DNA of 64,000 nucleotides from an uncultured Chloroflexia bacterium. Lineage in GTDB: Bacteria; Chloroflexota; Dehalococcoidia; GIF9; UBA5629. The DNA is taken from positions 118,780 to 182,779 of the forward strand of contig CAVWGE010000004.1 of the NCBI GenBank assembly GCA_963754385.1, in the 5' to 3' direction. The notes beneath the pieces were generated by a model. The model was given only the letters and a program-made list of their open reading frames with translations. It did not search any database and was not told the DNA's origin. Below are positions 45,572 through 55,895 of the stretch, one piece after another. Positions within the stretch are counted from its first letter, which is position 1. Each line of letters begins with the position of its first letter. The position numbers were made by a program, and so were the translations under genes.

Positions 45572-45647
45572 GAAGTTGTAGCTCAGTTGGGAGTGCGTTT
45601 GATTTGCAGTAAAAAGGTAGCGGGTTCGAATCCCATCAGCTGCACTA
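45572..45647 (+). pseudogene. Degenerate duplicate of tRNA-Ala (anticodon-position TGC, 3' CTA), likely pseudo-tRNA
   Basis: 76-nt cloverleaf-alignable copy of the 46507 tRNA, including about 12 bp of shared 5' flank (gactttttgg). It carries mismatches in the acceptor (2-71 A.G), D (12-23 T.T), anticodon (30-40 G.A) and T (50-64 C.A) stems, A3-T70 instead of the alanine G3-U70 identity pair, and CTA instead of CCA. Confidence 0.55.
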
Positions 45648-46506: not shown

Positions 46507-46582
46507 GGGGCTGTAGCTCAATTGGGAGAGCGTTTGACTGGCAGTCAAAAGGTAGTGGGTTCGAATCCCATCAGCTCCACCA
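46507..46582 (+). tRNA. tRNA-Ala (anticodon GGC)
   Basis: Folded by hand: 7-bp acceptor stem with the G3-U70 alanine identity pair, D stem gctc/gagc, anticodon loop ctGGCag, T arm gtggg-ttcgaat-cccat, discriminator A, encoded CCA. Total 76 nt. Confidence 0.9.
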
Positions 46583-46668
46583 GTAACCTTCCTAAGGCTA
46601 ATATCAATTCAAATCACCTTTCGACTAGCGAAAGTCCCAATACGCAATTAGCTATCCCATTACACCGT

Positions 46669-47565
46669 TTGATTGAAGGATTTCTGTTATCCTGCAAAGT
46701 AGAGAACAAGTCTCCTGCCACAATAAGCTTCTACAAGAACATCCTCGGTAAGTTCGAATGGTATCTCAGTAAATTCGGTATTGAAACGATTGATGCCAGT
46801 ATAATCAGGAACTTTCTAGGATACGTAAAAGACACTGAAAATAGATGGGATAGCACTAATGCGAGAGCTAATAGGATGGTTTCTCCTACAACAGTAAAAA
46901 GCTATTACATCAGTCTATCTGCCTTATTTACCTGGGCAATTGAAGAGCAGTTAATCACGTCTAATCCCATGGCTACAGTGAAGAGGCCTAAGTTACCCAA
47001 TAAATCAGTAAAAGGATGTGAACCTGAGACTTTAAAGATATTATTAAACGCTTTTAATGGTATGAGTTTGAATGATTTACGCAATAAAGCTATGCTCCTC
47101 ATGTTCTTAGATACTGGCTTAAGGTTATCTGAACTTGCAGGTCTGACTTTATCTGATATCAATATTGAGAAAGGCATCATCAAAGTCATTGGTAAAGGCA
47201 ATAAAGAAAGATACGCTAGAATAGGAGTCAAGACACAGAAAGCATTATGGAATTATTTAGCTCATAGACCAGTGGAAAAGGAGTATGTATGGTTGGGAAA
47301 AGGCTATGGCAAAATGACAGTAGATGGCATTGCTCTTGTTATTAGAAACTTGGGTAAGAGATTAGGGATTAGATTGTCACCGCATAGGTTGAGACATAGT
47401 TTTGCTATAATCTTCCTAAGGAACGGAGCTAATTCGTTTGAGCTACAGATAGCGTTAGGCCACACTACCTTAGAAATGACCAGGAGATATACACAGGCAT
47501 TAGGTTTTGATGATGTGTTCAAGAGGCATGTGGTGGCGAGTCCGGTAGATAGATTGATACGTTAG
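46669..47565 (+). CDS. Tyrosine-type site-specific integrase
   Basis: N-terminal SAM-like core-binding domain (LIEGFLLSCKVENKSPATISFYKN) and catalytic domain with R..(HRLRHSFA)..Y (RRY). The track ORF starts inside the tRNA; start moved to an in-frame TTG at 46669 because no ATG is available, so the boundary is approximate. Confidence 0.8.
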   Translation: MIEGFLLSCKVENKSPATISFYKNILGKFEWYLSKFGIETIDASIIRNFLGYVKDTENRWDSTNARANRMVSPTTVKSYYISLSALFTWAIEEQLITSNPMATVKRPKLPNKSVKGCEPETLKILLNAFNGMSLNDLRNKAMLLMFLDTGLRLSELAGLTLSDINIEKGIIKVIGKGNKERYARIGVKTQKALWNYLAHRPVEKEYVWLGKGYGKMTVDGIALVIRNLGKRLGIRLSPHRLRHSFAIIFLRNGANSFELQIALGHTTLEMTRRYTQALGFDDVFKRHVVASPVDRLIR

Positions 47566-47779
47566 ACTATGATGCGGTAGAGGCACATAAGATATCATCG
47601 CCCATTGATAGCCTCAAATCTTGACTGTATTGTGATAGCAAACCCAACTTAAGAAATGGTATAAATATTGGGGCAGGTCATCATGAGTAGCGATACAATA
47701 ATCTATACAATAATCTTGAGTAGCGAACTATATGCTAAGTCAGCGTCATTTATAAAAGTAAAGGCCGGTACTGAAAGTC

Positions 47780-48049
47780 ATGAACGAAGAAAACACTTGT
47801 GAGAACGCAATAGAACAGGAAGAACAAATCAGAGAAAGAATGGATGCTAACGGAATTAGGTGGCGGAAAATCTATGTTGGAGGCGGTGCTCACGCTAAGA
47901 ACTGGATACAACAGAGTAAAGAAATTTACGGCGAAGAAAATTTACAAATTGAAGAAGTAGAGTCGCCTGGCCCTAAATGCTACGAGGAGAGTAGCGAAAA
48001 ACAACTCAGAATCTGGGTAAGAATAAATAAAGCAACCCCTGTCACATAG
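47780..48049 (+). CDS. Hypothetical acidic protein (island cargo)
   Basis: 89-aa ORF, no family recognised. Confidence 0.3.
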   Translation: MNEENTCENAIEQEEQIRERMDANGIRWRKIYVGGGAHAKNWIQQSKEIYGEENLQIEEVESPGPKCYEESSEKQLRIWVRINKATPVT

Positions 48050-48070
48050 TAGGACACCAATATTGTCCGG

Positions 48071-48463
48071 CTAGAAGGTCTCTACCTCCTCGACGGCTAT
48101 TCTCACCACGTTGCGCACCTTTATGTTTCTGCTCACCCACTCGGCTACGGCATTGTCGAAAATGTCGCCGGATTTGAATATTTCACCCTTTCCCCAGATG
48201 CGACAGCCCTTGCGTGCTACTGCGTCTAGACAAATAACGGCAACCTGCGGATTTTCCTTGATGTTGGCGATGGTGCGTGGAGAAGCGATGTCAGCGAATA
48301 GAATATGCTCATCATCTAGAATACGTATAGAGCCTTTTGCAGAAACATTCGGTTTGCCGGTCTTGCTTGCCGTGGCCACGAGTGATGGATGTATTTCTCG
48401 GATTGCCTTTTTTGCTTCTTCAGTGAGCTTTACCATGGTTACCTCCTGTAATAAGATTGGCAC
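48071..48463 (-). CDS. Pyridoxamine 5'-phosphate oxidase-like FMN-binding split-barrel protein
   Basis: 130 aa; pattern HPSLVATASKTGKPNVSAKGS...ENPQVAVICLD typical of PPOX/general stress protein 26 family proteins. Confidence 0.7.
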   Translation of the reverse strand: MPILLQEVTMVKLTEEAKKAIREIHPSLVATASKTGKPNVSAKGSIRILDDEHILFADIASPRTIANIKENPQVAVICLDAVARKGCRIWGKGEIFKSGDIFDNAVAEWVSRNIKVRNVVRIAVEEVETF

Positions 48464-48500
48464 TATTATAAATCAGTCCTTAGTCTCTGTACATACCTTT

Positions 48501-48533
48501 GACCTGCCCCCAATACTTATACCACTTCTTAAC
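48501..48533. repeat. R repeat copy 1 (gacctgcccccaatacttataccacttctta)
   Basis: One of four 30-33-bp near-identical copies (48501, 48835, 51335, 55769). The reverse complement reads GTGGTATAAGTATTGGG, an extended -10-like motif, positioned 6-40 bp upstream of minus-strand ORFs. Confidence 0.55.
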
Positions 48534-48566
48534 AAATACTCATAAGGACGACAAATCAAAGCAATT

Positions 48567-48818
48567 CTAAACTCTACCATTTGTTATTGACCTCAGTTTA
48601 TCCTTTCTCTTAAGTCGCTTAATTCTATGCTCCATTCTAGAGGCATGCGCTTTATCGTCACAATCCCACTTGGCTAGCAATTTAACAGGCCTTCTTCCTC
48701 TAGTGTATTTAGAGCCAGTCCCTGAGTTGTGTTGCCTTATCCGCTCATCAATATCATTACTGATTCCTGTATAAAATGTTCCATCATTACACTCAACTAT
48801 ATAAACACACCAATTCAT
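48567..48818 (-). CDS. GIY-YIG (URI-domain) nuclease family small protein
   Basis: Motifs VYIVECNDGTFYTGISNDIDERIRQHN and KYTRGRRPVKLL; 83 aa. Flanked on both sides by R repeats. Confidence 0.8.
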   Translation of the reverse strand: MNWCVYIVECNDGTFYTGISNDIDERIRQHNSGTGSKYTRGRRPVKLLAKWDCDDKAHASRMEHRIKRLKRKDKLRSITNGRV

Positions 48819-48834
48819 TACAATTTCCTATAGT

Positions 48835-48867
48835 GACCTGCTCCCAATACTTATACCACTTCCTAAT
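48835..48867. repeat. R repeat copy 2
   Basis: gacctgctcccaatacttataccacttcctaat, 16 bp upstream (minus strand) of the GIY-YIG start. Confidence 0.55.
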
Positions 48868-48894
48868 CTAGTCCCACAAGCACAATAGCCTCAG

Positions 48895-48966
48895 GCGCAG
48901 GCTTTGGGATTTGATGATGTATTCAAGAGGCATGTGATGGCGTCACCGGTGGATAGGTTGATGTAG
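48895..48966 (+). pseudogene. Integrase 3'-terminal remnant b (..QALGFDDVFKRHVMASPVDRLM*)
   Basis: About 72 bp that are roughly 85% identical to the last 24 codons plus stop of the 46669 integrase. An in-frame TAG lies 9 codons upstream, so no upstream integrase body remains. Confidence 0.6.
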
Positions 48967-49039
48967 GACTAGTCTGTAGGGCAGGTCAGTTATCTGAGTG
49001 AATTAACGTGCGTCATATTATCACCTATTTTGCTACTTG

Positions 49040-49678
49040 TTAAGCAACGCGTATACGAAATCGAAGCGTTGAGAATATCATAGAACCAATGATGGCAGTG
49101 GCAAAAATACCAATTGACACAATAGGATTTAGGTATGATATGCCCATTGCAATCACGAAAAGGGCTATACCAACCATTACTGTCATATTACGTATTCTTA
49201 CTTCATGCAAGTCAATGTCTGTATCTACTAGTCGATATCTTCCCGTGGCATATGTCCACTTTATGTAGCACATAAGCATACAGGCCAGAAAATTGCCCCC
49301 ATATAATAGGACTGGCAACTGTTGTCCCATATACTCTCCTAGAAGAGACGTTGAAAAGGGTAGTAGCGCCGTAAACATCAGAAATAGAATGTTTATCCAG
49401 ATCAGCATGGTGTCTGCACGTTTGATGAAACTGAACTGCCAATGATGCATGCACCACATATAACCTAGCACTAAAAACGTAACGGCGTAGCTTGCGAATT
49501 TTGGCCACATATCAAGTAACTGCTTAAATTCCTGGTGCATTGAGCTTTCCCTAAACACAGGAACACCGAGCCCCAATACCAACAGCGTCATTACGATAGC
49601 GAAGACCCCATCGGTTAGAGCCTCGAGTCTTTTTGGAGATAATGCAATTTTTGTCACTTGCTGTTCTGAATTAGTCAT
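49040..49678 (-). CDS. TMEM175-like (DUF1211) putative cation channel
   Basis: 212 aa, 6 TM segments. N-terminal signature RLEALTDGVFAIVMTLLVL matches the RxxxFSDGVFAIAITLL filter helix of TMEM175/DUF1211 proteins. Confidence 0.65.
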   Translation of the reverse strand: MTNSEQQVTKIALSPKRLEALTDGVFAIVMTLLVLGLGVPVFRESSMHQEFKQLLDMWPKFASYAVTFLVLGYMWCMHHWQFSFIKRADTMLIWINILFLMFTALLPFSTSLLGEYMGQQLPVLLYGGNFLACMLMCYIKWTYATGRYRLVDTDIDLHEVRIRNMTVMVGIALFVIAMGISYLNPIVSIGIFATAIIGSMIFSTLRFRIRVA

Positions 49679-49844
49679 AGTTTACCCCCTTATTTAGAAT
49701 TGTCTGGACTATTAGAATCACCTGTAGTGCTCCCATGTTACATCCCTATATATTAGCCGTCAACGAGAAGCAGTTAGTAATTTGTAAATACTAATAAAAT
49801 TGAGGATCTGCCTTCGGGTCAGTTACGTAATGGATAATTCGATA

Positions 49845-49913
49845 GCATTAGGATTTGATGATGTGTTTAAGAGGCATGTGCTGGCTAGTCCGGTGGATAG
49901 GCTGGTGAGGTAA
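49845..49913 (+). pseudogene. Integrase 3'-terminal remnant c (..IALGFDDVFKRHVLASPVDRLVR*)
   Basis: 69-bp homologue of the integrase C-terminus plus stop, isolated in non-coding DNA. Confidence 0.6.
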
Positions 49914-50111
49914 GGTAACTGAGTGTGTTCGACGTCAGCAAAAATTGGACACATTGTGGATACTAGGTAATGGACAGTCTGGGGTTTGCTGCTGCCGCCT
50001 GAGAAGACTATTGCTGATGGATGCAGAAATACCGCAGTTCATTCAACATTAAGGCAGAGATTTGAAAGGAGTCCAAGACCCCCCTCATCTCACTACCCGT
50101 ACCTCTTTAGC

Positions 50112-50564
50112 TTACTCAGATGGTTGCTTTTTGGCCTTGAGCCTTCTCGCCTCCTGATCCTCGGCTATCGCCTGTTCTCTAGTCAAGTCGGCTTTCCTTC
50201 TCGCCTGCTTTTTGACTAGTCGCCCAGCTTCCTCAGTAGCGCGCTTCTCTGATCCCTTGGCTTTCCTTGCTTTCAAAGCCTTTTCAATCGCCTCTTCTCT
50301 AGTCAAGTCGGCTTTCCTTCTCGCCTGCTTTTTGACTAGTCGCCCAGCTTCCTCAGTAGCACGCTTCTCTGATCCCTTGGCTTTCCTTGCTTTCAAAGCC
50401 TTTTCAATCGCCTCTTCTCTAGTCAAGTCGGCTTTCCTTCTCGCCTGCTTTTTGACTAGTCGCCCAGCTTCCTCAGTAGCGCGCTTCTCTGATCCCCTGG
50501 CCTCCTTTAGTGATTGTTCTTCTTGGTCTCTCATCGTTCTACCTATCAACATTGAGATAATCAT
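50112..50564 (-). CDS. Basic tandem-repeat protein (three 40-aa repeats KARKAKGSEKRATEEAGRLVKKQARRKADLTREEAIEKAL)
   Basis: ORF spans three near-perfect 120-bp DNA repeats. Lys/Arg/Glu-rich helical repeats with a short hydrophobic N-terminus. Coding status is supported only by the maintained frame across the repeats. Confidence 0.5.
   Translation of the reverse strand: MIISMLIGRTMRDQEEQSLKEARGSEKRATEEAGRLVKKQARRKADLTREEAIEKALKARKAKGSEKRATEEAGRLVKKQARRKADLTREEAIEKALKARKAKGSEKRATEEAGRLVKKQARRKADLTREQAIAEDQEARRLKAKKQPSE
50161..50520. repeat. Near-perfect 3 x 120-bp tandem direct repeat
   Basis: Units 50161-50280, 50281-50400 and 50401-50520 are identical except for about 1 nt internally and divergent outer edges. 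Confidence 0.85.
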
Positions 50565-50805
50565 GGAACCGGCGGTAAATCACTTTGTTGCAGCAACTTG
50601 CCCCAAATTATTGTACTACCTTTTATGTTAGGGTTGTCAAGACATGAACGGTTAGTACAGTGTACTCCACCCTATTAATCACGCGACCAGTAAGTTCGCT
50701 ACATTATGGCTCAAGAATTGTGGAGACAGCTTGATGCCGCAGAGGCTATTGGGACATACTACACTGATGATGACGAATAGGTACTGTCAAGCGGTAGGAT
50801 GCTTG

Positions 50806-50859
50806 GATGCGGTGGAAGCGCATAAGAAGTATTCACCTATTGATAACATTAAAATATAG
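50806..50859 (+). pseudogene. Divergent integrase C-terminus-like remnant f (DAVEAHKKYSPIDNIKI*)
   Basis: Shares the pattern D-x-V-x-x-H-x-x-x-SP[IV]D-x-[IL]-x-[IR]-stop with the integrase tail (DDVFKRHVVASPVDRLIR*). Starts the 560-bp segmental duplication. Confidence 0.4.
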
Positions 50860-50958
50860 CTTCTTCATATCTGGACTAGTTCTCCGGGGTGCAATCACTC
50901 AAAATACCCCTCGTCAATCCACTACTGCTCAATTTAACCCTGTATTGATCTAATTTCC

Positions 50959-51330
50959 TCAAGCTTCTGTTTCCTCTATATTAAGCTCTTCATCCCCAGA
51001 TACCTCGGTTAAACTCTCTTGCTCTGTTTCTACCTCTTCCCTCCCTTGCTCTTGATAGGCTGAAAAGTACTCTGCGATATTAATGTCACGATAGTACACT
51101 TCACAGACCAACCTATTGTGTTGTACACCGTCCGGTGATCCCAATTCAACCTTCTTGTTGTGGATAAGGCCAGAGAGCTTTTGTTCGACAGCTATCGCTC
51201 CTTTCCCACTCTTCGGAGCAGTGTAACCTTTCACTTGCACGAGATTTCCTGTTTCATCTCCGAGTTCCCACTTGGGAGATACCTCGAAAGTGTTTCCGTC
51301 AATAACTGCTACTACGGTGAATGTCTCCAA
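50959..51330 (-). CDS. SNase-like (thermonuclease/OB-fold) protein, probably non-catalytic, with acidic C-terminal tail
   Basis: VIDGNTFEV and VQVKGYTAPKSG align to the SNase DGDT and RLxGIDTPE regions, but with Asp-to-Asn and Asp-to-Tyr substitutions at metal ligands. TTG start; paralogue at 55393. Confidence 0.5.
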   Translation of the reverse strand: METFTVVAVIDGNTFEVSPKWELGDETGNLVQVKGYTAPKSGKGAIAVEQKLSGLIHNKKVELGSPDGVQHNRLVCEVYYRDINIAEYFSAYQEQGREEVETEQESLTEVSGDEELNIEETEA

Positions 51331-51334
51331 TACT

Positions 51335-51366
51335 GACCTGCCCCCAATAGTTATACCACTTCTTAT
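51335..51366. repeat. R repeat copy 3
   Basis: gacctgcccccaatagttataccacttctta, 5 bp upstream (minus strand) of the SNase-like gene start. Confidence 0.55.
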
Positions 51367-51395
51367 GTTAGTCTACAAGAACAATAGCTTAGGAG

Positions 51396-51470
51396 CAGGC
51401 ATTGGGGTTTGATGATGTGTTTAAAAGACATGTAATGGCTAGTCCGGTCGACAAACCGAAGAGGTCATAA
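51396..51470 (+). pseudogene. Integrase 3'-terminal remnant d (..ALGFDDVFKRHVMASPVDKPKRS*)
   Basis: Homologous to the integrase tail through SPVD, then divergent; preceded by the same roughly 40-bp spacer sequence as remnant b. Confidence 0.55.
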
Positions 51471-51514
51471 AAATCCTCAAAGACAGACAGGTTGATGCTG
51501 AAGATGTTGCTCAG

Positions 51515-51781
51515 GTGCTCCAAGCTGTTAAGGAATTTCGGACTGAAAAGGAAACTCAATCGTATCACTTAGTTATGAAAAATGGCGCGGTTGATAATAT
51601 TGGGCAGGCTGCAAAGCCGCATCGTATCACTTTTAAGAATAATCCCCAGTTTTTGAGGCTTCTGGACAGCCTTATTCGAAAAGGTCGTGGGGTTCCAACT
51701 ATTCAAAGTGAGCTTAGGGCTAATGGTTATGACGTGCCTTACGCTACTTTGGGGAGGTGGATTCGAAAGCATAAGAAGTAG
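51515..51781 (+). CDS. Small HTH protein (transposase/resolvase-type HTH)
   Basis: C-terminal GRGVPTIQSELRANGYDVPYATLGRWIRKHKK resembles HTH_23/HTH_28 DNA-binding domains of IS-family transposases; no catalytic domain. Confidence 0.45.
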   Translation: MLQAVKEFRTEKETQSYHLVMKNGAVDNIGQAAKPHRITFKNNPQFLRLLDSLIRKGRGVPTIQSELRANGYDVPYATLGRWIRKHKK

Positions 51782-51863
51782 GAGAAATATCAGTCAGTGG
51801 TATTTAGGATGCTATGCCACCGTATTCATCACGTCGTTCAAAGCGTTAATGTAACTAACCTGC

Positions 51864-53120
51864 TTACATGGACTCGCTTGTTTTAGTCCGCCTTAGAATT
51901 ACACTTAAGATAAGACCCATAACACTGACAGCAGCACTGACCAGGAAAGCCACATTATAGCTGCTGGTAACATCAAAAATATAACCAGCCAGAAACGGAC
52001 CGGCGGCTGCCCCGATGCAATAACCAAAGTTAATAACCCCCAGAATCAAGCTATGCGACCTCAGCCCAAAAAGCTCTGCCACTAGAGGCGACGCTGACGC
52101 AGCACAGCCCCCAGTGGCAAAACCAAAGATAGCAGCAGACAGATACAGCGCCCATGCCTCTGTGGCTGGTATTAACCAGAACAAAGCAGCTGTCATCAGA
52201 ACAAAGCCGATAATAAAAACCTGCCTATTCCCGATTCTATCGGCAGCCCAACCCAACACCAACCTGCCGATAATACCCGCGCCGCCAGCAGTAGCCAAAA
52301 TGTTGGCCGCAGTGGCAGCTGAAAATTCCAGGTCAGTGGCATACGGTGCAATATGCACCAGGATGGCATACCATGAAAATCCCAAACAAAGGTACATGCT
52401 CAAAGCAAGCCAGAATTGTCTCCCGGAAGCTGCCTCCCTGAGGGAAAATACCTTGGCGCTCCCTTTCAGCTCCATTTCTTCTTTACTCTCCCCGTGGGGC
52501 GTTAGACCCATCTGGGCCGGGTCACGCCTTAGAAGCTGGGCAAAAAGTATAACAGCAACCAAAGTCATGCTGCCCAGTATGATGTAGGATACACGCCAAT
52601 CATAAATAGAGATAAGCCAATTAGCCAACGGTGGTGCAATCAATCCGCCTACTCCTGAACCGGCTATGACAATACCGGTCATCGCACCTCTTCTCTTAAC
52701 AAACCATCTAGCTACTGTTGATGCTATTGGGACAAATGCTCCACTCATGCCGGTGCCTATTATCACTCCATAAAACAGATATAGCTGCCAGAGAGCATTG
52801 GTTTGTGACATCAGCAAGTAGCCTAGACCAAAAATGAAGCCACAAACCGAAATCACTATCCGAGGGCCAAGCCTATCGTTAACCCTCCCCACAGCAATAG
52901 CCAGCAAGCCTTGTATAATCCAAAAAACTGAAAAAGCGCCTGAGGTTACTGCTCTGGTCCAGCCAAGGTCGGTCAGCATTGGCTTGAAGAAGATACCAAA
53001 CGTGAATTGCATGCCAAGCATCAACAGCATAATAAAGAAGGCAGCTACCACCACGATATAGCCATAAAAGAACCGTGGTTTAGCCCTGGTAGGGGATTGG
53101 TAAACTCTCTGATTAGGCAT
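51864..53120 (-). CDS. MFS transporter (oxalate/formate antiporter-like)
   Basis: 12 predicted TM helices and MFS motif between TM2 and TM3 (GRVNDRLGPR). Start placed at the internal Met; the track ORF extends to 53162. Confidence 0.85.
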   Translation of the reverse strand: MPNQRVYQSPTRAKPRFFYGYIVVVAAFFIMLLMLGMQFTFGIFFKPMLTDLGWTRAVTSGAFSVFWIIQGLLAIAVGRVNDRLGPRIVISVCGFIFGLGYLLMSQTNALWQLYLFYGVIIGTGMSGAFVPIASTVARWFVKRRGAMTGIVIAGSGVGGLIAPPLANWLISIYDWRVSYIILGSMTLVAVILFAQLLRRDPAQMGLTPHGESKEEMELKGSAKVFSLREAASGRQFWLALSMYLCLGFSWYAILVHIAPYATDLEFSAATAANILATAGGAGIIGRLVLGWAADRIGNRQVFIIGFVLMTAALFWLIPATEAWALYLSAAIFGFATGGCAASASPLVAELFGLRSHSLILGVINFGYCIGAAAGPFLAGYIFDVTSSYNVAFLVSAAVSVMGLILSVILRRTKTSESM

Positions 53121-53340
53121 ACTAAAACCAAGCGCAGCTAAGTGCTGTGCCTTTAAGGGCAACTTTCACTACTGAAACCCAATTATAGCAGCACCGACCT
53201 GTGCGTTAATACTTTCCGCGTCATTTTGTTACACTCGTTACTAGCCCACCCTGCTGTAGAGCTTTGGCTGGACTTGCACACATCCCGATTGAACACCAAC
53301 AGACATAGTCTCTATAGTGAATGATTTCACAAAGCTATTT

Positions 53341-53520
53341 CAGCTTAACGGTGACTTGTAGAACTTCAGGCTATATTGGAAAGTAACTGACCCGCTTGTG
53401 CTTAGCTACTGACCAGCCTGTAAAGCTTCAGACTATCCCCAAAGTTAACTGACCTGGTATGTCCTAGCTAGTAACTCGCTTGTAATGCTTCAGGCAATCC
53501 TCAAAGGTTATACTTCTGGT
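53341..53520. repeat. Degenerate roughly 62-bp tandem repeat array (about 3 units) in non-coding DNA
   Basis: Units of form aactgacc-gcttgt-cttagct / actgacc-gcctgtaaagcttcag-c-at-c-caaagtt recur three times with substitutions. Confidence 0.5.
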
Positions 53521-53661
53521 ATACCGGAGAACCATACTCAAATCAGATCAACCGCCAAGATACATAATATCTAGAGTTGAAAGCCAGCGGGTTAAAACTG
53601 GCGGACGTAATAAGAGGACAGGGCTAAAGCAGAAGAGGGATAAACCATAATGCTAAAAGAG

Positions 53662-54015
53662 TTAAACCCTCTGTCTGTGGTTATTAAAGATAACTCCGAG
53701 CCTGTTAACCCTTATGTTAACCCCAAATTGACTACCTGCTCTTACCGTGGAGGTAGCGCAGGTTTTTATTTGAAGCGAAAATTGATTTCCTGAATTGTTG
53801 GTTAAAAACCTATCGATGTCCGTATCTCCACCTGGGCCAGGCCTAATTTGGCATTTAAGGTGCTTGTGTGCAATCTCATCAAGCAATGATTCGAAGGCAT
53901 GTCCTTTCACTGGGCGTAGAGTATTAGGGTCAGATACTACTACTTCATCAACAACGTCCCAAGACACGTTGACCCCTATTCTATCCATGAATTCTGAAAA
54001 TATATCCCTTGCCAT
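53662..54015 (-). CDS. Hypothetical protein (island cargo)
   Basis: 117-aa ORF; no motif recognised with confidence. Confidence 0.35.
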   Translation of the reverse strand: MARDIFSEFMDRIGVNVSWDVVDEVVVSDPNTLRPVKGHAFESLLDEIAHKHLKCQIRPGPGGDTDIDRFLTNNSGNQFSLQIKTCATSTVRAGSQFGVNIRVNRLGVIFNNHRQRV

Positions 54016-54177
54016 TCAAATATTCCTTCGGAGGTCTACAACACTGATGATGAAAATACCGATCAGGGTCAGATTCAACAGCGGTGCCTTACTATGGCCT
54101 AGCTCAAGGAATATTGTACCGCTCGGTATTTCGTAATGGAATGCCACTACCGTATGACTAGTAATTAGACGATCGGT

Positions 54178-54213
54178 TTGCCTAACAATTAGTCGGTTTG
54201 ATTATGAATCCGT
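54178..54213. repeat. Direct repeat DR-A copy 1 (acgatcggtttgcctaacaattagtcggtttgatta)
   Basis: About 36 bp, roughly 80% identical to 55166-55200. The two copies bracket a 1-kb AT-rich segment containing two small TM-protein genes. Confidence 0.5.
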
Positions 54214-54354
54214 TACTCGAAGCTAAGTGTTAAGCAGACTGAAGCTGAACGTTAAGCAAGACCTTACGAGAGGGAATCAGTAGGTCTAAATGGTATTCAC
54301 TGCCTATGCTTGTAGGAGCAGAGTGATTTCATAAAGAAATAGGAAGTATTTGTA

Positions 54355-54645
54355 TTATTCAACCTGTCTTCTGATCCACGCAGCGACAAAAGCTAATATC
54401 AAAAAAAGGATCCCAAATCCAATGAACATTAGTTGAATGGTAACAAAAGATGCAACTGACAAGATATCAAAGCTTACTAATACTAAATTAGCGATACCAC
54501 ATGCGAAGCAAATACATCCAAGAACGAATAGTACCCATGCCGCTGTTGTAGCTAGATTTTTAAGCGAGTTCGGCACTACTATCCTCTGACGCTGTTCCTG
54601 CAATTTACGCTCCTCATGTACTCTTCTAGTCTTTACTTCTGTCAT
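54355..54645 (-). CDS. Small membrane protein (2 TM)
   Basis: 96 aa with a charged N-terminus then two hydrophobic helices; markedly AT-rich. Confidence 0.4.
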   Translation of the reverse strand: MTEVKTRRVHEERKLQEQRQRIVVPNSLKNLATTAAWVLFVLGCICFACGIANLVLVSFDILSVASFVTIQLMFIGFGILFLILAFVAAWIRRQVE

Positions 54646-54693
54646 TACTATTCCCTCACAACAATTTCTCAGTCACCATATTAATTTAGGCGA

Positions 54694-54906
54694 TTATCCC
54701 TTAAGGACAAGTAAACTGCCGATTAAATAGGCAATTCCTACGAAAAGCAGAACAATGCTATACAGCCATATCGCCTTAGCTCTATCTTGTTTCTTGTCTT
54801 CTGATGCTGATAGATAACGACCAAAGTGGAGCATAAATGCTCCGATTCCAATTATGACCCATGCTATGCCTATTATAATGAGCTTGTAGATTATATTAGC
54901 ATCCAT
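54694..54906 (-). CDS. Small membrane protein (2 TM)
   Basis: 70 aa, two hydrophobic helices separated by a KKQDRAKA loop. Confidence 0.4.
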   Translation of the reverse strand: MDANIIYKLIIIGIAWVIIGIGAFMLHFGRYLSASEDKKQDRAKAIWLYSIVLLFVGIAYLIGSLLVLKG

Positions 54907-55165
54907 CTTGATTGCCTCCGATATCTAGAGGTTACAATCCAAGTTTTCCTTGTTGCCAGGGATAATCGCATTAGTTTATCTTAACTCACTATATTACAGC
55001 ATAAAATGGTAATAAATAAAAGAGCAAGATGCTTAGTTATATTCGTTGGCTAGAGTAAGATCCGATCATGTGAAATACTGCTAGACAAACTAACCTTCTG
55101 ATTAAGAATCAAAAGGCCAAATCAAAGTCAGTCTAGGGATACTCGGCTTTCACTTAACAATCAAA

Positions 55166-55200
55166 CGATCGGTTTGCCTACCAATCAAACGGTCAGATTA
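55166..55200. repeat. Direct repeat DR-A copy 2
   Basis: acgatcggtttgcctaccaatcaaacggtcagatta, directly abutting integrase remnant e. Confidence 0.5.
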
Positions 55201-55202
55201 CA

Positions 55203-55232
55203 GCCAGTCCGGTAGATAGGCTGGTACGTTAG
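55203..55232 (+). pseudogene. Integrase 3'-terminal remnant e (..ASPVDRLVR*)
   Basis: 30 bp matching the last 9 codons plus stop of the integrase. Confidence 0.5.
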
Positions 55233-55239
55233 AGACTTA

Positions 55240-55293
55240 GATGCAGTGGAAAGTCATAAGAGGTATGGGCCAGTGGATAATATTAAAATATAG
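55240..55293 (+). pseudogene. Divergent integrase C-terminus-like remnant g (DAVESHKRYGPVDNIKI*)
   Basis: Paralogue of remnant f; begins the second copy of the 560-bp segmental duplication. Confidence 0.4.
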
Positions 55294-55392
55294 CTATGTT
55301 ATGTCGGGACTAGTTCTCTTGGGTGCAATCACTTAAAATACCCCTCGTCAATCCACTACTGCTCAATTTAGCCCTGTATTGATCTAATTTCC

Positions 55393-55776
55393 TCAAGCTT
55401 CTGTCTCCTCTATATTTAGCTCTTCATCCCCAGATACCTCGGTTAAACTCTCTCGCTCTGTTTCTACATCTTCCCTCGCTTGCTCTTGATAGGCTGAAAA
55501 ATACTCTGCGATATTAATACCGCGATAGTATACTTCACAGATCAACCTATTGTGTTGTACGCCGTCCGGTGATCCCAATTCAACCTTCTTGTTGTGGATA
55601 AGGCCAGAGAGCTTTTGTTCGACAGCCATCGCTCCTTTCCCACTCTTCGGAGCAGTGTAACCTTTCGCTTGCACGAGATTTCCTGTTTCGTCTCCGAGTT
55701 CCCACTTGGGGGATACCTCGAAAGTGTTTCCGTCAATAACTGCTACTACGGTGAATGTCTCCAATACTGACCTGCC
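55393..55776 (-). CDS. SNase-like protein, paralogue of the 50959 ORF
   Basis: About 93% identical to the first copy over the shared length. The track ORF (to 55818) reads through R repeat copy 4 to an upstream ATG, so the true start is uncertain. Confidence 0.5.
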   Translation of the reverse strand, partial: GRSVLETFTVVAVIDGNTFEVSPKWELGDETGNLVQAKGYTAPKSGKGAMAVEQKLSGLIHNKKVELGSPDGVQHNRLICEVYYRGINIAEYFSAYQEQAREDVETERESLTEVSGDEELNIEETEA

Positions 55777-55794
55777 CCCAATAGTTATACCACT
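55769..55794. repeat. R repeat copy 4
   Basis: gacctgcccccaatagttataccact, followed 50 bp later by the attR tRNA fragment. Confidence 0.55.
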
Positions 55795-55843
55795 GAAGGT
55801 GATTATACCACTAAGCATTTTGTAACGGAATGTCTCGTTTGAC

Positions 55844-55895
55844 TCATAGTCAAAAGGTAGTGGGTTCGAATCCCATCAGCTCCACCATCTTTGGG
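55844..55895 (+). repeat. attR: partial direct repeat of tRNA-Ala 3' portion (anticodon stem to CCA)
   Basis: cgtttgact[cat]agtcaaaaggtagtgggttcgaatcccatcagctccacca matches tRNA positions 25-76 except for 3 nt in the anticodon loop. The 40-nt 3' part is identical, so crossover must lie 3' of the loop. Confidence 0.8.

Follow-up and report, generated by a model that had tools for sequence, protein, structure and literature searches.

Truncated integrase genes in a tRNA-Ala island of an uncultured Dehalococcoidia bacterium as a probable record of serial integration

This work concerns a 64,000-nucleotide (nt) stretch of DNA, hereafter the window, from an uncultured Dehalococcoidia bacterium (assembly GCA_963754385.1, contig CAVWGE010000004.1, positions 118,780 to 182,779), and within it an island (46531-55887) bounded by the 3′ half of a tRNA-Ala(GGC) gene and by a 52-nt repeat of it at the far end. 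The island contains one intact Xer-like integrase gene, which we call A-type, together with truncated 3′ ends of integrase genes devoid of most or all of the gene body: four co-oriented A-type stubs and three stubs of a second type (B-type). Our analysis, which includes 100 related Dehalococcoidia loci (L001-L100), favors, with a probability of about two in three, the growth of the island by serial integration of small elements at one tRNA-Ala gene, followed by deletion of the older integrases.

Tandem integration at the tRNA gene is seen directly in two loci. In L100, the order is tRNA-Ala, an integrase gene cut at residue 194, 7 kb of cargo, a GGAGG-6-ATG, the core of a partial tRNA repeat (tRNA′), a complete integrase gene, one gene and a stub. 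In L005, two tRNA′ repeats follow each other in succession. The sister genomes carrying L005, L007 and L009, which have a common chromosomal flank, furthermore display three fates of one integrase gene located before the same cargo, U1 (98% identical between L005 and L009, 91% in L007): this gene is intact in L005 and cut to residues 1-157 in L007, and in L009 only 35 nt of its 3′ end persist, separated from the tRNA gene by a dead integrase and about 4 kb of new DNA. A decayed tRNA anticodon arm (GTTTG.CT....A.TCAAA.GGT) precedes this 35-nt stub, one or two other stubs of L009 (the motif stands before short stubs at ~14225 and ~15931 of that locus) and stub d of the window, whose left junction recurs in L009 at 15956. 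In the window, this anticodon-arm copy (GTTTGCCTACCAATCAAACGGT, 55159-55193, plus strand) is immediately upstream of stub d and aligns locally to tRNA positions 25-47 with a score of 24-28, at the top of the island distribution. Judging from its sequence, the arm is most simply read as the remnant of a junction between a tRNA′ core and an integrase gene that collapsed by deletion. Also among the best tRNA-like matches of the island is a decayed tRNA-Ala-like copy (54163-54212, plus strand) that keeps the tRNA order between D arm and T arm; it forms repeat D8 with 55159-55200 and reaches about the 99th percentile of windows for tRNA likeness within the island; it probably is an old internal element boundary. 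Taken with the tandem junctions, the decayed arms that precede stubs therefore point to at least three former elements in the island, and the actual number is probably seven or more.

The island itself has the architecture of a tRNA-targeting integrative element: the integrase gene adjoins the tRNA gene, its product carries a tyrosine-recombinase catalytic domain and a tRNA repeat is present at the far end. The tRNA-Ala(GGC) gene (46507-46582, plus strand) was detected by ARAGORN and scores 69.5 bits with the Rfam tRNA model; its 3′ half (46531-46582) constitutes the left attachment site (attL). The right one (attR, 55830-55887, plus strand) comprises the 52-nt tRNA′ repeat (55836-55887), 94% identical to the left copy (direct repeat D6), and an in-frame ATG at 55830. 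The G+C content of the island is 41-47%, compared to about 47-49% in the flanking windows. A direct repeat of the 3′ part of tRNA-Ala also marks the far end in L002, L005 and L100, and the integrase gene, where complete, begins 87 nt past tRNA-Ala, as in the window and in L001-L003 and L005-L007. A second tRNA-Ala gene (anticodon TGC, 45572-45645) is located 860 nt upstream of the one that carries the island; in L002, tRNA-Ala(TGC) is the target of the same element family.

The intact A-type tyrosine integrase (46669-47565, plus strand) has 298 residues from a TTG at 46669, and its frame is open from 46522 through the 3′ half of the tRNA gene. It matches the Pfam family Phage_integrase (PF00589, E 8e-32) as well as SAM-like N-terminal domains, its nearest solved structure is XerD (1a0p, E 2.5e-26), and the catalytic motifs DTGLRLSE, HRLRHS and LGH...RRY can be seen in its translation. 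Among the NCBIfam models, it matches XerA, XerD and XerC best, without reaching any curated cut-off. A search for homologues retrieved 6160 proteins (E<=1e-10), the matches listed coming from Chloroflexota or Dehalococcoidia. The Pfam and Xer models stop at residue 276-277, directly past the catalytic tyrosine, and what follows is the tail to which the stubs correspond (ALGFDDVFKRHVVASPVDRLIR, residues 277-298, 47494-47565, plus strand).

All the stubs of the window are on the plus strand. The A-type stubs a (QALGFDDVFKRHVMASPVDRLM and a stop codon, 48898-48966), b (ALGFDDVFKRHVLASPVDRLVR and a stop codon, 49845-49913) and c (QALGFDDVFKRHVMASPVDKPKRS and a stop codon, 51396-51470, with a decayed end) share 85, 83 and 78% nucleotide identity, respectively, with 47494-47558, the leading 65 nt of the intact tail, and stub d (ASPVDRLVR and a stop codon, 55203-55232, 30 nt) is 87% identical to the resident sequence over the 31 nt of 47536-47566 (repeat D5). 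The four A-type copies reported in a preliminary description of this DNA were thus recovered at their places. Stubs a, b and c are highly significant in tblastn searches (E 8e-8, 5e-8 and 8e-7; 90-91% amino acid identity), whereas the 11 residues of stub d only give an E of 1.4; in nhmmer searches, stubs a to d obtain E 3e-17, 1.5e-16, 1.7e-13 and 0.035. The nhmmer match of stub d (55193-55232) covers profile positions 315-354, which sets the length of this stub at 30-40 nt. No integrase homology was found upstream of the left ends of stubs a, b and c, in agreement with the earlier statement that these remnants lack any integrase body. An R repeat (48834-48859) and a 38-nt spacer precede stub a, and an R repeat (51334-51359) and a homologous spacer precede stub c, which also bears out the previously noted association of a repeat and a shared spacer with two remnants (here those at 48898 and 51396). 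Comparison of this spacer with the integrase gave nothing convincing.

The B-type stubs share the consensus DAVEAHK..SP[IV]D..K.-stop. One of them (YDAVEAHKISSPIDSLKS and a stop codon, 47568-47624), found by a motif scan 2 nt past the stop codon of the intact integrase, had been missed by the preliminary description, which had reported the two others as divergent tails. Both are indeed present, but the tail at 50806-50859 (DAVEAHKKYSPIDNIKI and a stop codon) is continuous with a larger remnant (50668-50859) that encodes the C-terminal 61 residues of a B-type integrase, including LGHTTLMMTNRY, and shows 43% identity to residues 239-296 of the resident integrase (tblastn, E 5e-9). The last one (DAVESHKRYGPVDNIKI and a stop codon, 55240-55293) is directly behind stub d. 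A 300-nt repeat (D1; 50802-51101 and 55236-55535, 89% identity) includes part of the larger B-type remnant. Composites of an A-type stop codon and a B-type tail similar to that of 47563-47624 were also found in L005, L009, L012, L062, L079 and L090. The B-type tail is very often within 2-20 nt of the A-type stop codon and begins at the same residue (DAVEAHK), for example at 47563-47575 in the window, 14455-14470 in L005, 15987-16000 in L009 and 380-405 in L012. Hybrid tails that are A-type up to ASPVD and B-type thereafter (NIKA-stop) are present in L001, L033 and L019 (at 6348). Evidently, the A- and B-type subfamilies have, on repeated occasions, taken each other's place or recombined at this 3′ end.

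When the related loci were surveyed with a nucleotide profile built on the final 354 nt of the gene, 170 raw hits (148 unique) were obtained, all co-oriented within their locus. Among 99 partial hits, 71 reach the last two profile positions, i.e., the stop codon. The largest array (L019) has eight stubs spaced by 0.45-1.1 kb, apart from one gap of 3.5 kb, and its units mostly consist of a single open reading frame of 89-243 codons, mainly on the opposite strand. Five or six stubs were found in L032/L071, and three in each of L005, L038, L050 and L054. The left ends of the stubs, measured from the first base of codon 281 (GAT GTG), form a continuum from -210 to +23 nt with the nucleotide profile, and extend out to residue 64 with tblastn; they continue down to the detection limit of the profile, which is about 32 nt. 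Stubs of 32-45 nt are as frequent as those of 60-75 nt, and the retained length ranges from 30 to more than 400 nt. The idea that exactly one 60-75-bp segment was retained each time consequently does not hold: short stubs are equally common, and stub d itself belongs to them. We likewise rejected the notion of a protected unit of 60-75 bp, or of a hot zone right behind the catalytic tyrosine, since the pile-up of tblastn left ends at residues 269-280 is largely an effect of the detection limit.

The conservation of the tail follows codons and ends at the stop codon: after TAG or TAA, information content is near zero, and no conserved second binding arm was found there. For both strands, shuffled sequences have fold energies similar to those of the tail (z between -1.35 and +1.67), and a search for a structure or a conserved DNA motif marking a deletion barrier was negative. 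With no excess of folding, and tRNA as the only family returned by the Rfam scan, the tail was discarded as an attC-like hairpin, a terminator or a small RNA. It was also discarded as a mimic of the tRNA-Ala core (local alignment score of 20, compared to a mean of 16.7 and a standard deviation of 3.2 for shuffled sequences; P about 0.18). Of the two explanations put forward in the preliminary description, serial tandem integration followed by deletion is the best supported (by L100, L005, the L009 stub and the arm before stub d), but its corollary, a protected site at which deletion always stops, has to be abandoned given the continuous left ends and the lack of a structure or motif. A recurrent module (GAAAAYCATTGTNANTAAAGGRGNAA) followed by a 33-nt stub that starts at codon 288 was observed in L030 (6297 and 7847), L044 (3434), L065 (10926) and L087 (898); in two of these five copies, an ATG at codon 288 stands behind AGGRG and would open a 10-residue reading frame, MASPVDRLxR.

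The origin of the stubs can be read from their codons. Compared with the resident tail, stubs a, b and c show six, six and nine synonymous and two, two and four non-synonymous codon differences, respectively, including an AGT-to-TCA serine switch. Since the stubs differ mostly at synonymous sites, they derive from other functional integrases, and this codon pattern implies divergence inside working genes, followed by decay since truncation. Stubs a and b resemble integrases from elsewhere more than the resident one: stub b shows 96-97% identity with those of L007, L009 and L033, and stub a 95% with that of L089. The DNA next to the stubs is also found elsewhere: the cargo to the right of stub a (48966-49721), which includes a TMEM175-like gene, is 89% identical to 1888-2643 of L015, and stub b with its downstream DNA (49870-49962) is 97% identical to 1263-1356 of L057, where the stub starts 30 nt further in. 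Across the family, non-synonymous changes make up 38% of the codon differences between stubs and the nearest intact gene, compared to 23% of those between intact genes, and premature stop codons occur in three of 57 stubs. These features indicate that the stubs are under relaxed constraint.

These data bear on a simpler origin, in which slippage or segmental duplication would have copied the 3′ end of the resident integrase, the copies then drifting. All copies are in the same orientation within one 9-kb island, as local duplication would have it, and the island does contain one genuine duplication of more than 300 nt (50802-51101 and 55236-55535). However, divergence within working genes, as evidenced by the mainly synonymous differences and the serine switch, rules it out, several stubs have nearer relatives among the integrases of other genomes, and the same stubs with the same cargo occur in other genomes. 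Given these conflicts, local duplication is hardly tenable. Gene conversion homogenizing the stubs within a genome was likewise rejected, the stubs of the window being only 78-87% identical to the resident tail.

From these observations, the following course of events can be proposed. The element would originally have consisted of a Xer-like tyrosine integrase gene and one or a few cargo genes, with tRNA-Ala as its target. As the junctions show, recombination takes place between the tRNA gene (from the anticodon loop to the 3′ end) and a tRNA-like site with which the integrase open reading frame begins; upon integration, the ribosome-binding site and the start codon of the integrase are left at the far end of the element. 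A newcomer at the same tRNA gene then displaces the older element inward, and the right end of the newcomer provides the older integrase with a ribosome-binding site and an ATG, as the arrangement of L100 shows. Such arrays would last only if the internal junction (start codon, tRNA′ core and integrase body) is deleted; both the internal tRNA′ core and the integrase start, which would have to go for the array to be stabilized, are at the left edge of the dispensable interval. The deletions would thus begin at or before the core and end anywhere ahead of the next cargo. The cargo beginning directly past the stop codon, a deletion extending further to the right would damage it, and therefore only the 3′ end of the integrase could survive, as a stub of variable length co-oriented with the tRNA gene. 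Moreover, long integrase remnants would act as direct repeats liable to delete the intervening cargo, which may favor short remnants. Each stub would represent one former element, the A- and B-type stubs coming from two related integrase subfamilies. Being the sole homology among otherwise unrelated units, the stubs would finally serve as short direct repeats for the loss or swap of units; such events have left traces in part of the loci, by a mechanism that we infer.

The second and third steps of this scheme rest on an unusual position of the integrase start. In 30 of 33 unique genes, the frame upstream of the annotated start (LIEGF) continues without a stop codon across the tRNA-derived site, the chance of this being roughly 0.1-0.3 per gene. 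Furthermore, 9 of the 12 unique copies of the attR or attP type carry an in-frame start codon (eight ATG and one TTG) located 10-21 codons upstream, across the site, and seven of these nine have a clear ribosome-binding site; the ATG at 55830 of the window is among the nine. Start codons across the site were recorded in the window (55830-55887 with 46522-46668), L002 (15957-15996), L005 (16631-16685), L021, L039, L044 and L100 (9990-10061), and the database proteins P0003, P0005, P0025 and P0038 carry junction-derived N-termini; like the tandem junctions, these are indirect signs of integration or excision activity. With a ribosome-binding site and a start codon across the attachment site, integration would therefore remove the translation start of the integrase, which a tandem neighbor appears to restore, as in L100; in the window, the ATG at 55830 would provide it in a circle or in a tandem. 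The region of the annotated start (46660-46680; CGT TTG ATT GAA GG) is near-invariant, even at synonymous sites, in 32 related loci: TTG is kept in 32 of 32 genes, CGT, ATT and GAA almost always, and the left arm of the tRNA anticodon stem also reads CGTTTGA. The element CGTTTGATTGAAGG is conserved as well. The near-invariant region may hold another start codon or offer the integrase an additional half-site for binding, and the TTG may allow a shorter integrase product, so that "suicidal", as said of archaeal integrases, is possibly too strong a word here.

Serial integration followed by deletion does not account for everything, and several observations weigh against it as a sufficient explanation. 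In three sets of loci with long remnants (L005/L007, L068/L087/L032/L094 and L057/L075), the identity of the shared cargo ends at +33 to +43 of the tail and not at the left end of the remnant. One unit of 0.8-1 kb (unit Z), bounded on both sides by tail ends, is about 99% identical between L005 and L007 while their chromosomal flanks are only about 90% identical. The TMEM175 cargo is located between A-type tails in the window and between B-type tails in L015. Stubs a and c have a common upstream module and the same junction nucleotide, yet show 11 synonymous differences. Partner switching, the association of one cargo with two tail types and common junctions thus require extra recombination inside the tails, and a homology of 30-70 nt at 80-90% identity is a poor substrate for RecA. 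In addition, the selective argument for the loss of internal junctions is one that we infer only. Change-point analysis gave three clean switch points, at +33, +42 and +43; overall, the switch points are at about +15 to +21, +22, +33 to +45 and +54, from only about eight informative cases, which do not suffice to define a single crossover point. On the strength of these switches, units have been exchanged within tails. Switches would in any case fall at the 3′ end, where alone a long integrase copy and a short stub overlap, and we treat the stubs as portable homology for the loss and exchange of units.

Exchange within tails could also be the work of the integrase. In an integron-like system, the last 30-70 nt of the integrase gene would be an attachment site at which circles made of cargo and a partial tail, but devoid of integrase, are inserted into or excised from the end of the resident gene or of a stub; the integrase would act in cis or in trans, and the incoming copy would restore the reading frame, as tRNA-targeting elements restore the tRNA gene. 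Several facts fit such a system: (i) at one orthologous site, L078 has a tail followed by D, whereas L074, L076 and L077 have tail-cassette A-partial tail-D and L075 has tail-cassette B-partial tail-D, high identity resuming at the last codons; (ii) unit Z is flanked by tail ends and almost unchanged (about 99% identity) in different array contexts; (iii) the TMEM175 cargo begins at the stop codon of an A-type tail in the window and about 9 nt past that of a B-type tail in L015; (iv) the hybrid tails of L001, L033 and L019 switch between SPVD and NIK; (v) an upstream module recurs with a short stub, in five copies (GAAAAYCATTGT..AAAGGRG.. joined to ATNGCNTCNCCGG) and, for a module named X3, three times; and (vi) Arg287 and Arg294 are encoded by AGR in every aligned tail displayed, as seen by eye and uncounted. 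However, the switch points are dispersed over the tail instead of falling within one 6-8-bp overlap, and the whole stub moves with the downstream cargo in several cases (U1 of L005/L009, stub b of the window and L057, L055/L032). The continuity of left ends, the lack of conservation past the stop codon and hence of a visible second binding arm, the lack of structure on either strand, the non-significant similarity of the tail to the tRNA core of the integrase and the relaxed constraint on stubs do not favor it either, and X3 turned out to be the remains of a tRNA′ arm, suggestive of a tandem junction that has collapsed. We thus regard an integron-like attachment site as rather unlikely. In favor of the proposal of the preliminary description that the segment is part of a recombination site, several cargo units have changed partners in the last ~20 nt of the tail or at the stop codon; against it, the positions of the switches differ and the tail is unlike the tRNA core. 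It is equally improbable that Dehalococcoidia harbor a complete system of this kind, with single-gene circles inserted at the last codons of the integrase, each bringing a replacement C-terminus, and an integrase start codon supplied only by the circle or by the upstream neighbor, which would be a bacterial counterpart of the archaeal "suicidal" integrases.

The stubs could alternatively have been retained for a function of their own, as terminators or insulators between convergent genes, as antisense targets in integrase regulation or as coding sequences of small peptides. Cargo genes being mostly on the minus strand, their transcripts could cross the tail in antisense, the amino acid sequence of the stubs is well preserved, and AGGRG-n-ATG in frame with ASPVDRLxR-stop occurs in two of five copies of one short-stub module. 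Nevertheless, this start codon is inconsistent, fold energies match those of shuffled controls and no Rfam family was found for the tail, the retained length varies from 30 to more than 400 nt, and the stubs of the window are not homogenized (78-87% identity). Divergence acquired within working genes also argues against a function at the protein level, as do the premature stop codons and the larger amount of non-synonymous change than in intact genes. Retention for a function appears very unlikely, and we come back to serial integration and deletion as the probable process that left the stubs.

Other repeated sequences were observed in the island. The R repeat (TGACCTGCCCCCAATACTTATACCAC) is confined to it, with four copies on the plus strand (48500-48525, 48834-48859, 51334-51359 and 55768-55793) and an inverted copy at ~47655-47680; read on the opposite strand (TGGTATAAGTATTGGGGGCAGGTCA), it resembles an extended -10 promoter with a conserved leader, facing minus-strand cargo genes. 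R repeats were considered as general inverted ends of cassettes and rejected: CAGGTCA/TGACCTG is enriched beside tails, yet in only 6 and 7 of 122 cases (~5%), and can only be the marker of a subset. Two copies of a unit (50802-51360 and 55236-55795, 89% identical over the first 300 nt) consist of a B-type tail, a gene for a protein of 123-141 residues and an R repeat; this protein has no Pfam match and looks staphylococcal-nuclease-like by eye. The second copy is the terminal unit of the island, and in L005 and L009, similar ends made of a short stub and a B-type tail adjoin the tRNA′ repeat; with L009, the identity is 76-79% over about 100 nt. A minus-strand open reading frame (50112-50564) contains three tandem 120-nt repeats (50135-50508, 85-87% identical) encoding a 40-residue unit rich in Lys, Arg and Glu; the 150-residue protein has no significant family match, and an inverted relative of these repeats, 71% identical, is present in L007 (13791-14219).

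If each stub stands for one past arrival at tRNA-Ala, the stubs are a legible record of the gain of single genes in the streamlined genome of an uncultured Dehalococcoidia bacterium, and with arrays of up to eight stubs, arrivals at tRNA-Ala would be a main route of gene gain in this clade. In a large bacterial family such as this one, a start codon on the far side of the attachment site would render integration self-limiting, which would account for the pile-up of elements. If the integrase itself performed the changes of partner at the last codons, this would be a new kind of cassette system. Overall, we mostly see here ordinary island growth, in an unusually clear form: the general mode, serial integration with decaying integrases, is already known in other bacteria, and the present island is a clear example of it.

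Such a mode has been described for the tycheposons of Prochlorococcus (Hackl et al., bioRxiv 10.1101/2020.12.28.424599), whose islands grow by serial integration and keep fragmented integrases as remnants. Both systems have a tyrosine recombinase gene beside a tRNA gene, small cargo elements ending in partial tRNA repeats, newcomers that displace older elements deeper into the island, and a host with a streamlined genome. The likeness concerns architecture and growth mode only. In the Dehalococcoidia islands, in contrast, nearly all remnants are 3′ stubs, few of the internal tRNA repeats are left, arrays go up to one gene per stub and the integrase start codon is across the attachment site. 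Closer to the window by class and target gene, the high-plasticity regions of Dehalococcoides include tRNA-Ala as a known hot spot of islands, with a 25-bp tRNA-Ala repeat associated with a truncated homologue of the adjacent site-specific recombinase (McMurdie et al. 2009, PMC2764846). Arrays of recombinase 3′ stubs and their anatomy are not described in that work.

The arrays also resemble integrons and clusters of attC sites lacking an integron integrase (CALINs): an integrase gene ends an array of mostly single-gene units with a recurring 30-75-nt separator, arrays without an intact integrase exist (L019, L009) and cassettes are polymorphic in presence. However, the system of the window is not an integron. 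Its integrase is Xer-like and far from the integron-integrase models (TIGR02249, 50.4 bits compared to a cut-off of 265; PRK15417, 30 compared to 435), its repeats are fossils of coding sequence and not structured attC hairpins, no fixed crossover point was found among the few informative cases, the integrase and cassette genes are convergent, and a subset of cassettes has its own promoter-like R element.

A review of SSV-type integrases (PMC8371274, 2021) states that self-disruption of the integrase by integration is exclusively archaeal. The elements of Dehalococcoidia share with them an attachment site within the frame of the integrase gene, which integration splits, and the tendency of elements, once integrated, to stay trapped and build up at tRNA genes; excision would require an intact copy contributed by another element. 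PF16795, the SSV/pTN3/pT26-2 family according to the same review, is absent among the Pfam matches of the resident integrase at E<=0.01. The present case further differs by its bacterial host and by what is split off, namely only the ribosome-binding site, the start codon and the first 4-10 codons. A related logic operates in ICEclc-type control, in which an outward-facing promoter at the end of the element drives the integrase gene only after circularization. Here also, the signals for integrase expression would lie far from the gene, at the other extremity of the element, and only a circle or a tandem would bring the two together; beyond the promoter alone, however, it is the start codon itself that appears to be across the junction.

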